Positions 22,667 to 56,253 of a DNA stretch of 61,870 bases are shown here, one piece after another (positions within the stretch are counted from its first letter, which is position 1; each line of letters starts with the position of its first letter). The notes under the pieces are model-generated. The model did no database searches. It saw only the letters and a list, made by a program, of their open reading frames with translations, and had not been told where the DNA came from. The position numbers and the translations under genes were made by a program. The stretch comes from Candidatus Helarchaeota archaeon (lineage in GTDB: Archaea; Asgardarchaeota; Lokiarchaeia; Helarchaeales; RDOG01): contig JALGVI010000008.1 in the NCBI GenBank assembly GCA_029838215.1, positions 1-61,870 on the forward strand. The letters are read 5' to 3'.

Positions 22667-23185
22667 ATGACGATCATATTTAAGACCGTTATCGCCGGTG
22701 AAGGCGGTGTTGGAAAAACAGCATTGACGATCCGTTTTACAAAAGGCGTATTTATTGAAGGAACAAAAATGACCATTGGCGTGGACTTTTCTGCCGTAAA
22801 AGTAACGCTGGGAGACGAATCCGTAACCTTGCAGCTTTGGGACTTTGGTGGTGAATCACGATTTCGATTTATTTTACCTGGTTATTGTAAAGGGGCAAGT
22901 GGAGCACTATTAGTTTTTGACTTGACTCAAGAATACACTTTTAAATCTCTTCCCGAATGGCTTGAATTAATTCGCACCAATACACCGCCGGAAACTCCAA
23001 TCGTGCTAGTGGGAACTAAGATGGACCTTCCAAATCGAGTCATCACACGGGAAATGGCTGAAGCATTCAAGGATGAAAAAGGTTTAGCCGGATATATTGA
23101 ATGTTCATCAAAAACTGGAACAAATGTCGGTCATGTCTTTGGTCTAATGACACAGGCAATGTTAAAAGCAAGTCGAGGTAGTTAA
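22667..23185 (+). CDS. Rab-like small GTPase (Ras superfamily)
   Basis: G1 GEGGVGKT, TIGVDF, G3 WDFGGE, G4 GTKMD, G5 ECSSK; no C-terminal Cys prenylation motif. Confidence 0.9.
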   Translation: MTIIFKTVIAGEGGVGKTALTIRFTKGVFIEGTKMTIGVDFSAVKVTLGDESVTLQLWDFGGESRFRFILPGYCKGASGALLVFDLTQEYTFKSLPEWLELIRTNTPPETPIVLVGTKMDLPNRVITREMAEAFKDEKGLAGYIECSSKTGTNVGHVFGLMTQAMLKASRGS

Positions 23186-48545: not shown

Positions 48546-49100
48546 TCATCCAATCCGACCATCGTAAGTAAGAGCTATCTTGATGCAACCATCATCAAGT
48601 GATTCAATGTTGACGCTAGAAGTATACAGCCTATATGACGTGGTCAAGATTGGCGTGAAGAATCGTGAGAGAATCTTCGTTGCATTAGATAGGAATAATT
48701 TGGCAACATCTTTTGGGGATTCTGCAATGACACCATGCTTCGATAGGCAATTATTGATGATTTCTAATTCTTGCGGTTCAAAAACGTAATTTATCTTGAT
48801 GATTGCATCCACATTTGAACGACCGATTTCACAAACGGTGCCCAATTTTTTCTGATCAAATGCAAACAAGTAGCATAGAAATGTTCCGAAGAGGGCTTTC
48901 CCGATCCATTTTAGAAATGGCGATATCGTATGATTTCCATATTTTTTCGTCCATTGCTTGTATGCTTGATTAAACTTTGTAATAAATGAATCTATCGGAC
49001 CTCTTTTCGCCTCTTCAAGGAATGCTAGAACGCCCCCAGTTATCTCCATTTTACTTGCTTGAATGATTCTATCGACCATTCCTTCAAATCGTTCATTCAT
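48546..49100 (-). CDS. Hypothetical protein
   Basis: 184 aa ORF, no family recognised. Confidence 0.5.
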   Translation of the reverse strand: MNERFEGMVDRIIQASKMEITGGVLAFLEEAKRGPIDSFITKFNQAYKQWTKKYGNHTISPFLKWIGKALFGTFLCYLFAFDQKKLGTVCEIGRSNVDAIIKINYVFEPQELEIINNCLSKHGVIAESPKDVAKLFLSNATKILSRFFTPILTTSYRLYTSSVNIESLDDGCIKIALTYDGRIG

Positions 49101-49214: not shown

Positions 49215-49697
49215 ATGAAGCAAATAAGCGTGATAGGAGCTGGTGTATTGCAGGATCGTAGAATATATGAATTCACGCGTGAATTGGGACGCGCTTTGGC
49301 GAAAAACGGGTATATCGTGGTCTGTGGCGGAAAAGGTGGTGTAATGGAAGCTGTTTGCAGGGGAGTTCATGACGAAAATGGTATTTCTGTCGCAATTTTG
49401 CCAAGCATTAATGATGAAGAAGCTAACGAATATGCCTTCATAAGAATTCCCACGGGTCTTGGAGAAGAACGGAACAGGTTAGTCGTCCAATCTGCTTCCG
49501 TGATCATTTGCATTGCAGGTGAACGCGGCACGCGAATGGAGGCAAAATATGCGCTAAAATTGAAAAAACCCCTAATAACGGTTCCACATACAGGTGGTGT
49601 TTCGGAAGAATTTAGCACTTTGGTTTCCGATAACATGCATGTTGCTAATGATATTAAAGAAATTCTGACACTTCTTAAAGAGATCACGAAAAATTGA
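49215..49697 (+). CDS. LOG/SLOG family protein (TIGR00725-like)
   Basis: ISVIGA, VVCGGKGGVMEAVCRG, IPTGLGEERN, GTRMEA. Confidence 0.85.
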   Translation: MKQISVIGAGVLQDRRIYEFTRELGRALAKNGYIVVCGGKGGVMEAVCRGVHDENGISVAILPSINDEEANEYAFIRIPTGLGEERNRLVVQSASVIICIAGERGTRMEAKYALKLKKPLITVPHTGGVSEEFSTLVSDNMHVANDIKEILTLLKEITKN

Positions 49698-50253
49698 CTT
49701 GCTTTTTCTCACCACGCCAATGACGGATTAACTGTTCGTACATTTTTTCTAGACTCTCATTGGCATTAATATAAATAATGTCATCAAGATGTTCCCTCCA
49801 AGTTGGTAACTCAATTTTTTCAAAATATTCCGTTATTATTTCTTCGGGAACCTGACGGTGATTTCGTTCTTGATTTCTTTTTAGAGCGATTTCCAAGCGG
49901 GCTTGCAGGAAGATGATCCAAACGGCACCTTTTTCATACTTTGCTAAGGAAATGAATCTTTTTCTGTATGAGCGCAAATAATTCGTGCTATCTAAAATGA
50001 CGATCTTTTCTTTTTGCAATTCTTCAGCAACTCGGTCTTCAATGGTCTGCCATGTATTTTCCTCATCGACCATCTCATAAGTTCCTGTTAATTCCTTACG
50101 TGTTTCATCGGAAGAAATTAGAGAAATGCGATCTTTAAACACGCTTTCGAGTTTTTCTTTCAATAATTTCGAGAACGTTGTTTTTCCGCTGGCTTGAATG
50201 CCCGCTATTAGTAGGAGGGCGCAGTCACCCCTAGGCATGGAATAAATCACCAT
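49684..50253 (-). CDS. P-loop kinase, PSTK/KTI12-like catalytic domain
   Basis: GIQASGKTT, SSDETR, ILDSTNYLRSYR, KRNQER..QVPEEII. Confidence 0.7.
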   Translation of the reverse strand: MVIYSMPRGDCALLLIAGIQASGKTTFSKLLKEKLESVFKDRISLISSDETRKELTGTYEMVDEENTWQTIEDRVAEELQKEKIVILDSTNYLRSYRKRFISLAKYEKGAVWIIFLQARLEIALKRNQERNHRQVPEEIITEYFEKIELPTWREHLDDIIYINANESLEKMYEQLIRHWRGEKKQVNFS

Positions 50254-50351: not shown

Positions 50352-50957
50352 TTATTTTACAAGAGCTTCTGCAAGGGTGCGAAATGCATCTTCAACATTT
50401 TCTCCGCTTTTTGCGGATGTCTCAATAAAGCGAAGGGCTCCAATCAATTGCTTCATTTCTTCACCTTTTTTTGTTTCGATTGGTTCGAGACCTTCTTTCA
50501 GTAAATTTTTATCGACACCTTTCAATTCGTCCTTGATGTCCTTCTTGTTTCCGATTAAGATCATTGGTATGTCTTTTCCGCCGATGGCTGCTTTCAAGTC
50601 GTCATGAAAATCACCGACATCAAGATAGGTCGAAGGACGGGTCAAATCGAATACAAGCAAGGCACCTTGAGCACCACGATAATACATGTTTCTGACTTTG
50701 CCGAAATGTGTCTGTCCAGCCACGTCCCAGCAGGAAAGTTGAACTGTTTTATTGTCAATTTTTAATTCTTTCAACAGGATATTGACACCTATTGTTTCGA
50801 TGTACTTTTCTTTGAAGCTATTTGCTACAAAACGATTAATCAATGACGTTTTTCCAACGGCTGGACTTCCGATGCACACGATTTTAAAACTATAGACTTC
50901 TTTATCTCTGGACACTGTAAACCCTCTAAAAAATTTTAGTTGTAGGTTTTTGGACAT
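50352..50957 (-). CDS. Ras-superfamily small GTPase (Rab-like switch regions, Rho-like insert)
   Basis: GSPAVGKT, TIGV, WDVAGQ, YYRGA, GNKKD, ETSAK. Confidence 0.9.
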   Translation of the reverse strand: MSKNLQLKFFRGFTVSRDKEVYSFKIVCIGSPAVGKTSLINRFVANSFKEKYIETIGVNILLKELKIDNKTVQLSCWDVAGQTHFGKVRNMYYRGAQGALLVFDLTRPSTYLDVGDFHDDLKAAIGGKDIPMILIGNKKDIKDELKGVDKNLLKEGLEPIETKKGEEMKQLIGALRFIETSAKSGENVEDAFRTLAEALVK

Positions 50958-51122
50958 GATTTTTCTAACTGACGCATGGACTCGTCTCGTAATTGGAATA
51001 TTATTTGTCTTTATATTTTAAGCTTATTGAGCATGAAAAACCTGACAAGATTGTTTCGTTTTGAAGCGAAATTCAAAAACGAATTCAAAAAAAGAATTAC
51101 AGATTGAAGAAAATACTCTTTT

Positions 51123-52443: not shown

Positions 52444-55400
52444 TTACCATTCGTTTCTCTCTTCTCTCATTTTAGCTCTATCTATATATTGATCCAACTC
52501 TGCGAGATATTCATTAAGCCATTGTAGAACATTATTATTAGTTTCATCTAGTTTCAATTTAGAGAATTTTTCCTTCTTTTTTTGATAGTGAAGACTAGCT
52601 GGTGGTCTATAAATCTCTGTTCCTGTTGTAAAATTGATTAATAATTCTATACGGACATCTTCCAAATGTCCATATCGTTTTAACACTTTGTAGGACAATG
52701 TGGGATTATTATTGTCATCATAAAGAGCACGTGGAGCATATCTCGCAATAAGTGATGCTCTATTTTGCTCATCCTCATCAATCCAACCCCATATTAATTT
52801 TAAGGGTATTAAAGAAAGAAAGTTCTTTCTTTGCATCCAATTTAATAACCAGAAAGATCTAGAGTCATGTTGGTATTTATCGATAATAAAATACTGCGTT
52901 ATTGATTTCCAAATTTGCTCTGGGAATTTTTTTCCAAAATCTATCAAAAAATTATTTATATAAGAGTCATATCCTTCAATGATTGTTCCCTCTTCACGAA
53001 AATGCTGGAATATAATTTCAACAATTGTAATACTTTCATTTGGATATAATTCAAAGAATTTAGAAGCGATCCTATACCAATAGAAAGAATCCATGTTGCT
53101 GAATTTATATTCAATATTCTTTCGAAACAACCGTTCATCTGTAAGTAATTTTAATGTTAATTCCTTCGGAAGTATTTTCTCTGAATCATGTTGTACATAA
53201 TAGGAAAAATAAAAATCGAGAATTAATGCAATTGCTTCAGTTCTAGGTGTTTCAATTAATAATTTCAACCATTTATTGAATGTATCTTCTGACATTGCCT
53301 GAGATCTGTGTCCAAGATATGAATCCTGTAATTGTTTGAGTGTAATGGCACCATTCTTATAGAGATTTAAAATCCTAAGAACAGATCTATCAGTTACACC
53401 TGATCGTTGAGAAAGTTGAAAAACCAACTCAAAATATTTTTCCTGTTTATATAAATCATCCAGAATTTTTTCCCATTCCTCTCTATTTCTTTCAAAGATT
53501 GAACGAAAATAGCCGTTTATTAGGGAATAATTAATCGGTTCCTCTTTAGATTCTATGAATTTAAGAAGATTTGGTAAAAGTGAAAGAATTTCATCCTTTT
53601 TACCCAATTCATAGCCAAAAAAATAAGCTTTATTTGCTTGATCTGTTAATAACCAAGTTAATTCGGACCTTAATAAAGCAGGATTCTTTATTGCATCCTT
53701 TGCTAATTGTTGAATTTGGTTTCTAGCTTCACCTATTGGTAAACCATCTCGATCAATATCGTCTTCAAAAAGCAGACTCATACCGACATATCGTTTTAAA
53801 AGGGAGGGAAAATCGTTTCCTGTCAGTTCTTCCTTCAATTTAGTCCATCTGACCAGAATGTCATCTGTTAACAAGCCCTTTTCAAAATGTAAGAGTTCAC
53901 TAATGCGATTAAGTAACATTTCCCTATTGCAGAATTTTCTTTTCGAGAGAGTTTTGATGGTCTTAAAAACAATCGTTTGGAATTCTGATTTAGTTCCTAG
54001 ACTTCTGATTTTATTAATTAATATATTACAAGCTTCAGCTTGCAAATTTTCTTCTAGTTTGTCAATCTCACTTTCTAATAGACTCCAGATAGCGCGATGT
54101 CCTTGAATCCACTCTTCATAGGATTTAGGAGTCCAAAATTGTTCGTCTTTTGGGAAGCCGTAATTAATATTATCGATTACTCTAACAAATCTACGGACCT
54201 GTAAAGCTCTTTCACAGGCTTTAAGAACTAACATTTGGCGATCCTTTATGCCTGAATTGAATGCATCTTTAATAATTGGTAACCTTTCGAGGGGTGAAGC
54301 CGCAGTTGGAGCGACTTTTCCCGGTCCTGGAGAGAAAAGATCAATGAATACACCTGTTGCATTATTTGCATAGCTTTCATTTTCTGCTTCGGCCAGTAAT
54401 AGGAGAATTCTTGCTGCACCAAGAAATAGTTCCTTTTTTCTGGCGAGCTTTTGAAGAGCCCAAATGATTTCTCTTCGACCATTTTTATATTCGAGTCTTT
54501 CTTCCTTAGTCCATTTACCAATTGTATTATTTAGGCATTTCAAAGCGGATTCTGGATCAGCCTCAGTGAGAATTAAAAAAAAATTTGCGCCTAATTTACT
54601 TTTCAAGAATTCCTTATTAGCCCCTTGAAATGGTCCAGCTTCCCCGAGTATTTCTCTAACCTTTTTCATCGCAACTTCAGACTTCTTAGCATAAGCAAAC
54701 ATCTCAAAAAACCATTCGCGCAGTTTTGGTTTTAGTTTCTTTGAGAAATCTTCTAATTCTATACCTAAACCATAACGATCCCAAAATTCAGTCCAAAGCC
54801 ACACGTGAAATAGCTTTGGAGTTATATAGAGTGTAATATCTCCTTGAAGGATCTTTCTTTTCCTAAGAGTAGATATTATCTCTTGAAATCTCATCCATGT
54901 AATTTGTGGATCTGTTTCTTCTATCAGTTTAGCGATATATCTCGCTTCATTAATTAAATCACGTCCAAATCCAAATCTCTTAAAAATTGAAAGATATCTT
55001 AGAGTTAATTCTCTTTGGACTACTTTTTGGTCGTTAGGATCATCTCCACCTGTGATAAAACGTTTCCATAGATTTGTGTAGTCCACTTCTTTCAAAACAT
55101 CTTCAGGGTTTTCAGGATCTTCTCTTAAATTCATACCAATGATATGAGCCACTCTTGGGTTACCATCACAATAACTGGCCCATTTTTTAGCTAAATCTTT
55201 ACTTACTCTATAATTTTCTATGATCTCAACGATCTTCTCAAGCTCTAAAGGCTTTAAGCTGTAGTACCTTGTAGTACCCGCTCTATACTCTTCTTCTTCT
55301 GGATAAATACTGATAAGTTTTATTCTAGGTCCCCGATTTCTCAATTTATTCCAAAGATTTGAACTCGTTGATACATCTAAATCATCAACAACTAAAATAA

Positions 55401-56253
55401 CATAAAAATCATTATCAACTCTTAAAATCTCATTTAAAAGAGGATTTTCTAAGAAATTACTAGGACGGGAAACATAAATCACCAAAGGGGAAAGATCCTC
55501 TCTCCGAGTGGCTTCATAAATAAGTTTAGTTTTCCCGATCCCTGGTTCTCCCAATATTCGGATATGAATGGAATCGTCAGCTCCTCTTAACTCACCCTGG
55601 AGAGCTGATACCAGCTGGTCCTCATTTTGATCTGGCATATATTCATTTCTCATATCTTCGTCTTGACCCCAACTCTTATGGGTTTGAAACTGTATTTTTT
55701 CAGTTCCTTTAATTAATAAGCATAAAGAAGGATATGGTTTAAAAAATCCAATCAGACCCGTCTGATCAAAAATATCTATCTGAGGATCTTCATAGTCACA
55801 ATCGTTGTGCAGGATGTCCCTTAAATTTGATTCTGCCAAAACACGTTGCTCCTTAAGTAATTCTATTCCAAAACAAACAATAACATATCTTCCACCACCA
55901 TCAAGACAGTGTTTTATCATTTTTTTAAGGTTATTTTTATTTGGTTCTTTTCTTTCACCAAATAATTCGTTTCTGAGCTCTGCTAGCTGCCATGGCTCAA
56001 ATGTTTTGCCAGATTTTATTTGAAACCCCGTTTGTCCCTTCTTTATTAGACCACTTTCATTTTCAGTATCGTTCTCAATATAAGCATCAATTCCTCCATC
56101 CTTCACGGAACTATCTGTCTTTATTGTAATCTTGGAGGGAGGGATCTCTAATCTTGTAGATTCAGCATACAATAATTCGCGGAATATGATATGAGATTCA
56201 TCAGGAGAGTACCTATCTAACTCTTCCTTTTTAATTGTAAACATTGTTTCCAT
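52444..56253 (-). CDS. PD-(D/E)xK nuclease-STAND NTPase-helical repeat protein (Avs-like)
   Basis: N-terminal DGGIDAYIE..GFQIKSG (Mrr/Cap4-like), Walker A GEPGIGKT, Walker B ILVVDD, STAND GxP (CDGNPR), long alpha-helical C-terminus. Confidence 0.75.
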   Translation of the reverse strand: METMFTIKKEELDRYSPDESHIIFRELLYAESTRLEIPPSKITIKTDSSVKDGGIDAYIENDTENESGLIKKGQTGFQIKSGKTFEPWQLAELRNELFGERKEPNKNNLKKMIKHCLDGGGRYVIVCFGIELLKEQRVLAESNLRDILHNDCDYEDPQIDIFDQTGLIGFFKPYPSLCLLIKGTEKIQFQTHKSWGQDEDMRNEYMPDQNEDQLVSALQGELRGADDSIHIRILGEPGIGKTKLIYEATRREDLSPLVIYVSRPSNFLENPLLNEILRVDNDFYVILVVDDLDVSTSSNLWNKLRNRGPRIKLISIYPEEEEYRAGTTRYYSLKPLELEKIVEIIENYRVSKDLAKKWASYCDGNPRVAHIIGMNLREDPENPEDVLKEVDYTNLWKRFITGGDDPNDQKVVQRELTLRYLSIFKRFGFGRDLINEARYIAKLIEETDPQITWMRFQEIISTLRKRKILQGDITLYITPKLFHVWLWTEFWDRYGLGIELEDFSKKLKPKLREWFFEMFAYAKKSEVAMKKVREILGEAGPFQGANKEFLKSKLGANFFLILTEADPESALKCLNNTIGKWTKEERLEYKNGRREIIWALQKLARKKELFLGAARILLLLAEAENESYANNATGVFIDLFSPGPGKVAPTAASPLERLPIIKDAFNSGIKDRQMLVLKACERALQVRRFVRVIDNINYGFPKDEQFWTPKSYEEWIQGHRAIWSLLESEIDKLEENLQAEACNILINKIRSLGTKSEFQTIVFKTIKTLSKRKFCNREMLLNRISELLHFEKGLLTDDILVRWTKLKEELTGNDFPSLLKRYVGMSLLFEDDIDRDGLPIGEARNQIQQLAKDAIKNPALLRSELTWLLTDQANKAYFFGYELGKKDEILSLLPNLLKFIESKEEPINYSLINGYFRSIFERNREEWEKILDDLYKQEKYFELVFQLSQRSGVTDRSVLRILNLYKNGAITLKQLQDSYLGHRSQAMSEDTFNKWLKLLIETPRTEAIALILDFYFSYYVQHDSEKILPKELTLKLLTDERLFRKNIEYKFSNMDSFYWYRIASKFFELYPNESITIVEIIFQHFREEGTIIEGYDSYINNFLIDFGKKFPEQIWKSITQYFIIDKYQHDSRSFWLLNWMQRKNFLSLIPLKLIWGWIDEDEQNRASLIARYAPRALYDDNNNPTLSYKVLKRYGHLEDVRIELLINFTTGTEIYRPPASLHYQKKKEKFSKLKLDETNNNVLQWLNEYLAELDQYIDRAKMREERNEW

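Follow-up and report, generated by a model that had tools for sequence, protein, structure and literature searches.

Does a small GTPase of a Helarchaeota archaeon carry a prokaryotic precursor of the Rho insert, or did this protein acquire its own insert at the same position? The gene lies at 50352–50957 on the minus strand of the window, i.e., the whole stretch of 61,870 nucleotides that was analysed, and its product combines Rab-type switches with an insert at the Rho position. The Rho insert counts as the Rho-family hallmark, and its function is still described as unknown (PMC12969783, 2026). We propose, with a probability of roughly four in five, that one Asgard RasL GTPase gained its Rho-insert-like protrusion independently (by convergence) and in a lineage-specific manner.

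The open reading frame encodes 201 aa from its ATG (coordinates including the stop codon) and matches Pfam Ras (PF00071; E = 1.3e-47) over residues 25–199. In the databases, the protein is present as P0002 in a 187-aa form, and this length fits a GTG start at 50915. AGAGGG was located 7 nt upstream of this in-frame GTG, homologues begin approximately 8 residues ahead of beta1, and residues 1–17 of the long form were disordered in the AF2 model, with pLDDT below 50. GTG at 50915 is probably the true start, and the 201-aa reading frame is then 14 codons too long. A TATA-like AAAATATAAAG was observed approximately 55–65 nt upstream of the ATG (within 50913–51025, minus strand).

All of the nucleotide-binding motifs G1–G5 were intact in the translation and lie on the minus strand. 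The G1 motif or P-loop, GSPAVGKT (50847–50870; residues 30–37), has G30, G35, K36, and T37 invariant in alignment A1. Switch I with G2 reads ETIGVN (50784–50801; residues 53–58, including T55), which was Rab-type and not Rho-type PTVFxN when aligned side by side with Rho and Rab sequences. G3 reads DVAGQ (50712–50726; residues 78–82, with the catalytic Q82); the switch II that comes next is Rab-type and ends in YYRGA. G4 reads NKKD (50538–50549; residues 137–140), of which N137, K138, and D140 are conserved in A1, and G5 reads SAK (50409–50417; residues 181–183), with S181 invariant and A182 and K183 nearly so in A1. The earlier note on this DNA had reported Rab-type switches (TIGV, YYRGA, and WDVAGQ), and ETIGVNI, DVAGQ, and YYRGA were indeed read from the translation. 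The intact motifs, the Pfam Ras match, and the small-GTPase fold place the protein in the Ras superfamily. Because the five nucleotide-binding motifs and the catalytic Gln are intact, the protein would be expected, from sequence and fold, to bind and hydrolyse GTP and to toggle its Rab-type switch I/II; i.e., it would be a working Ras-superfamily switch of the Asgard RasL (Rab-like) group.

Among solved structures, the closest in sequence were Rabs (Ypt6, Ypt51, Rab43, and Rab1) and a Thorarchaeota Rab (PDB 7EZB, PMC10933270; E = 8e-31), all at E values of about 1e-31. Eukaryotic Rabs (Rab43, Rab1, Rab8, Ypt6, and Ypt51) share the switch motifs of the GTPase and are 33–39% identical to it. Among the 120 best matches listed, all those with a named source were Asgard proteins called 'Rab family GTPase' or 'GTP-binding protein'. 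Together with an MCR gene beside one orthologue, the source names of the nearest database proteins indicate Helarchaeales. The C-terminus (...EALVK) ends straight after alpha5. Unlike eukaryotic Rabs, the GTPase contains no Cys and no hypervariable tail at its C-terminus, and hence no CC/CXC geranylgeranylation motif; a CAAX box is likewise absent, as the last 12 residues contain no Cys. With no C-terminal Cys motif, any membrane association of the GTPase would come through partners. The Asgard origin of the nearest relatives, the Rab-type switches, and the absence of a lipidation motif assign the protein to the Asgard 'RasL' or Rab-like group (Klinger et al. 2016, as cited in bioRxiv 10.1101/2024.02.28.582541), with which it shares the G-domain, the TIGV switch I, the YYRGA switch II, the lack of a prenylation motif, and a large paralogue family. 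Its own genome (3.6 Mb, 94% complete) yielded 72 Ras-family matches, about 45 of them strong. The difference is the insert of 13–14 residues, which the Thorarchaeota Rab, the proteins P0014–P0019, and all other RasL examined lack, as do the eukaryotic Rabs.

The insert region ELKGVDKNLLKEGLEP was placed at 50481–50528 (minus strand; residues 144–159) from the translation and the position of the alignment gap. It adds 13–14 residues directly after G4 (NKKD) when compared with Rabs and insert-less orthologues, and the HMMER alignments to Rab structures open a 13-residue gap immediately after NKKDIKDE. N of G4 and S of G5 were 44 residues apart, compared with 30–32 in most of 269 related proteins and 43 in Rho-family sequences, for which we used P0190, a fish RhoB-like model, and P0132, and then 14 Rho/Rac/Cdc42 representatives. 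The Rho insert and the archaeal insert shared the same columns in the MAFFT alignment; the Rho-position insert that had been claimed after G4 is therefore real, at a Rho-like length. The second GTPase in the window (22667–23185), described earlier as insert-less, was confirmed by alignment to have no insert. Other relatives with a long G4–G5 distance (40–43) were rejected as further cases, as their extra residues follow alpha4 and are not at the Rho-insert site.

Across 12 clade members (56–85% identical), residues E144, K154, and P159 did not vary and L152 hardly did, and substitutions between orthologues in the insert stretch were concentrated at third codon positions. These third-position changes and conserved residues indicate that the stretch is translated and under constraint. 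We accordingly rejected an untranslated BHB-type mini-intron or an annotation artefact; the stretch is in frame, its four residues are conserved, and third-position changes dominate.

We then counted the Asgard homologues that carry the insert. Twelve protein clusters with the insert (P0001/P0002 and P0003–P0013) were present among the matches listed from a search of 5.8 billion proteins (120 best listed) and a search of representatives (150 best listed). The next group, P0014–P0019, was 54–61% identical and had no insert, and the same was true of all other matches inspected. A profile of the 12 members was compared with 400 Asgard species genomes, and the insert was detected in only two, the genome of the window (G000) and one other (G128), both of the same family (f1). 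The two insert genes scored 326 and 354 bits and everything else scored 184 bits or less; the lower-scoring loci retrieved were all insert-less. P0014-type proteins were not detected in 161 genomes of the class, save for cross-hits to the two insert genes. A search of the 5.8-billion set with residues 131–186 alone returned four candidates sharing words and two matches, and was uninformative on other insert-bearing clades. The 'Hodarchaeota' label of P0005 was rejected as a sign of wider distribution, because the gene order on its contig (PAP2-BacA-284 aa-GGACT-GTPase-radical SAM) matches that of Helarchaeota loci; P0005 is probably from the lineage of those loci. Full-text literature searches did not bring up any previous report of an Asgard GTPase with an insert of this kind.

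Within its own genome, the GTPase was the one among about 45 paralogues to have this insert. Two paralogues carry a different, Gly/Pro-rich insert of 12 residues (SGQVDSRTGRPYEK type) in the same G4–alpha4 loop. Both are located outside the window (contig C82, 8525–9451, plus strand; contig C131, 35433–36374, minus strand) and were sisters with 99% SH-aLRT in a quick tree. That these two paralogues have an unrelated insert there indicates that the loop accepts insertions, and suggests that the G4–alpha4 loop is an insertion hotspot in Asgard GTPases.

The genes around the GTPase were compared among insert-bearing and insert-less loci. The window contains an SLOG cluster-4 (LDcluster4) protein gene (49215–49697, plus strand) and, divergent from it, a gene for a 184-aa protein with no Pfam match (48546–49100, minus strand). 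An SLOG gene and a gene for a 184–188 aa protein also adjoin the GTPase at the insert-less P0015 locus (L037), with identities of 56% and 41%, respectively. The P0008-type locus (L001) contains a pair of the same layout within 5 kb, comprising a Pfam LDcluster4 gene and a 181-aa gene; the 181-aa protein shares a short motif with the 184-aa protein of the window, and the two were compared by this motif only. The shared linked gene pair suggests that the forms with and without the insert probably represent one gene, which differs between related lineages by an indel.

Directly downstream of the GTPase, the window contains a KTI12/AAA_33-type P-loop kinase gene (49684–50253, minus strand; Pfam KTI12, E = 6e-22). 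This gene overlaps the end of the SLOG gene on the opposite strand by 14 nt and is not conserved beside the orthologues examined. A GFO/IDH/MocA oxidoreductase is also among the neighbours in the window, and two genes upstream of the GTPase is one for a 1269-aa protein (52444–56253, minus strand) that matches no Pfam family at an E value of 0.001 or below. The neighbourhood, in the window and at P0008-type loci, contained no roadblock, longin, GAP, GEF, or effector candidate. We therefore rejected it as a clue to the partners of the GTPase, and the genes were usable as synteny markers only. RhoGEF (PF00621) and RhoGAP (PF00620) gave zero matches in the 94%-complete own genome, a count to be read beside control genomes that also gave zero and the lack of a positive control.

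A tree was inferred from 103 G-domains, comprising 12 insert-bearing sequences, 23 other Asgard sequences, 42 own paralogues, 14 Rho-family sequences, and 12 eukaryotic Rab-like sequences; its eukaryotic part covered Rho-family and Rab-like proteins, not Ras, Ran, Miro, or further families. We stripped out the insert columns and applied LG+C20+F+G4 by PMSF with ultrafast bootstrap and SH-aLRT. The insert-bearing sequences and the insert-less P0014–P0019 formed a clade with a support of 99/97, and the insert-less P0020/21 adjoined it. Outside the insert, the GTPase was 58% identical to this insert-less sister group, 45% to other Asgard relatives, 37% to eukaryotic Rabs, and 27% to Rho. The earlier note had taken the insert for a possible prokaryotic precursor of the Rho insert, and this nesting among insert-less Asgard GTPases argues against that claim, as does the occurrence of the insert in 2 of 400 Asgard genomes and one family.

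The time at which the insert was gained within this clade could differ from what we propose. The insert may have been present in the ancestor of the insert-bearing clade and P0014–P0019, lost in P0014–P0019, and unrelated to Rho. The monophyly of the 12 insert-bearing sequences was weak (62/29; 64% of bootstrap trees), and the quick tree left two insert subgroups and the insert-less group unresolved, as such a loss would allow. However, the outgroup P0020/21 and all other relatives are insert-less, and a gain followed by a loss is then no more parsimonious than a single gain. We consider this older insert unlikely; it alters only the timing within one narrow lineage.

A different question is whether the archaeal and Rho inserts derive from one event, in which case the insert-bearing clade would be a surviving relative of the Asgard GTPase behind Rho. 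The two inserts coincide in site, i.e., the same loop after NKxD-L/I and before alpha4, and nearly in length (44 vs 43 residues from G4 to G5), when RhoA, Rac1, and Cdc42 are compared. The archaeal insert is also partly helical and K/E/L-rich, and a central Leu and a terminal Pro-Val/Ile are common to both. We compared the block of 18 residues that follows D-L/I and precedes the V/I ahead of alpha4 with a profile of 11 Rho-family blocks. The full block scored above chance (column shuffle z 3.8, p = 3e-4) and ranked in the top 0.004–0.1% of 281,000 windows from the own proteome, a likeness beyond shuffles that favours a single event. However, when the flanks were removed, the 13–14 residue core gave p = 0.02–0.17 against proteome windows and p = 0.03–0.41 against composition-matched shuffles; judged by sequence, the insert core is not significantly Rho-like. 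The above-chance score of the block is due to its flanks, R/K-N/D-D/E after G4 and the terminal Pro, and the acidic pattern after G4 is also present in insert-less relatives. The stretch after the insert, I-G-A-x-x-F/Y-h-E-x-SAK, is one residue longer than in Rabs and occurs in insert-less sister proteins too, indicating that the post-insert similarity is not insert-specific. The close alignment with RhoA that had been noted earlier thus extends to the block as a whole and not to its core.

The remainder of the protein differs from Rho. Switch I reads YIETIGVNI in place of the Rho YxPTVF[DE]NY (PTVFxN, one residue shorter in Rho), and switch II reads QTHFGKVRNMYYRGA in place of the Rho QEDYDRLRPLSYP (DYDRLRPLSYP). 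There is no CAAX box, and the switch regions and the overall identity are Rab-like and not Rho-like, which counts against a single event. R89 (50689–50691) corresponds in position to RhoA R70, and the acidic D120 (50596–50598) to RhoA E102; the RhoA pair is described as the conserved 'Rho salt bridge' (PMC12969783). This pair could be cited in favour of homology; R89 is nearly invariant in Asgard relatives and is Thr in eukaryotic Rabs, and R89 with the acidic D120 may be an ancestral RasL feature.

The AF2 model of the GTPase had a mean pLDDT of 85, with 80–86 across the insert. In this model, the insert region comprises the end of a helix at 139–146, a break at G147, a helical turn at 150–152, and a loop ending at P159, with alpha4 at 162–172. 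Rho1 folded with the same pipeline has a turn at 119–121, a helix at 125–133, and alpha4 at 141–150. In the models, the archaeal and Rho inserts are therefore at the same site and both helical, whereas their helical segments are arranged differently. In the VIA comparison of the model, Rab and Rho-family structures tied (Z 27–28.5), and Rho, Rac, and RhoG aligned over 172–179 residues (of about 183 ordered) compared with 166–170 for Rabs. The longer alignments with Rho-family structures, which are compatible with homology, indicate that part of the insert superposes. In Foldseek, Rac structures had the top query-normalised TM-score (0.82) and Rabs led the ranking with the best E values. AF2 may have modelled the insert by analogy with Rho structures in its training. 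The RhoA-like insert helix of the earlier note is thus upheld as a partly helical insert at the Rho site, of which part superposes, but not in the arrangement of its segments.

In the free tree, Rho formed a 100/99 clade with a long stem and was located elsewhere. When Rho and the insert clade were constrained together and the topology was re-optimised, the dlnL was 25.2 and the arrangement was not rejected (two-tree AU p = 0.17). We then regrafted the Rho clade on each of 176 backbone branches under LG+F+G4 with a fixed backbone. Of these placements, 64 were not rejected, indicating that the position of Rho is poorly resolved. The stem of the insert clade ranked 116 of 176 as the Rho attachment (dlnL 29.2, p-AU = 0.005); the stem of the insert clade plus its sister group ranked 51 (p = 0.066) and the eukaryotic Rab stem ranked 60 (p = 0.095). 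Under the full LG+C20+F+G4 model with five chosen trees, Rho at the insert-clade stem was rejected (dlnL 23.7, p-AU = 0.0014), as was the stem of the insert clade plus its sister group (p = 0.0125); the Rab stem was not (p = 0.12). The best Rho placements adjoin long-branch sequences, i.e., the tree shows where Rho fits badly and not where it belongs. Sister placement of Rho to the insert clade costs 24–29 lnL in these comparisons.

In a published phylogeny, eukaryotic Rab, Ras, and Rho form one clade within Asgard RasL, and no Asgard sequence is specifically sister to eukaryotic Rabs (bioRxiv 10.1101/2024.02.28.582541). Given this joint clade, the Rho insert would date after that split. A common origin is also opposed by the nesting of the insert clade with insert-less proteins, one of which (P0015) shares neighbouring genes, by the restriction of the insert to one family in 2 of 400 genomes, and by the fixed-backbone tests. 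One AU test that failed to reject homology, together with the coinciding site, length, Leu, and Pro, leaves it a small residual probability; the precursor claim is not supported, although the phylogenetic exclusion is not absolute. In a milder version, the RasL loop may have been predisposed, and the same Pro-terminated helical insert may have been fixed twice for the same structural reason.

A partial internal duplication of the alpha4 start, suggested by the double occurrence of EM..L.KSL in several members, is a highly improbable source of the insert; the alpha4 segment was the best internal match of the insert profile (RDEMEGLSKSL vs GEEMKKLIKAI), but this match was not above column shuffles (p = 0.23), and the copy offset of 21 residues differs from the insert length, so that a simple tandem duplication does not apply.

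We therefore return to an independent gain as the preferred explanation. The G4/beta5–alpha4 loop would have gained 13–14 residues in a narrow lineage of orthologues, which was observed in one family only. The insert is predicted to form a short, partly helical, K/E/L-rich protrusion beside the guanine-binding loops, on a side of the protein that points away from the switches, and would have arisen independently of the Rho insert, by convergence or parallelism, rather than as its ancestor. By analogy with the Rho insert, it would most likely offer this paralogue an additional surface on which a lineage-specific partner or regulator could dock, or would tune nucleotide handling via G4/G5.

If the origin is independent, an insert at the G4–alpha4 position cannot alone call Rho ancestry in Asgard genomes. 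The close relatives with and without the insert (54–61% identity) would then provide a natural comparison, and they allow a test of the effect of the insert on nucleotide handling and partner binding; one insert-less relative shares the linked genes. The finding leaves intact the picture of Rho arising within the eukaryotic Rab/Ras/Rho radiation. If the inserts were instead of common origin, the Rho insert would predate eukaryotes.

In the second insert-bearing subgroup (L001 with P0008, L002 with P0011, and L036 with P0005), the GTPase gene is located within a conserved block. VTT/DedA, PAP2, (BacA), the 284-aa protein, and GGACT genes precede it, and radical SAM, cupin, and CLP1_P genes follow. 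An MCR alpha gene and IS605 OrfB are also located near the L002 block, as expected for alkane-oxidising Helarchaeota.
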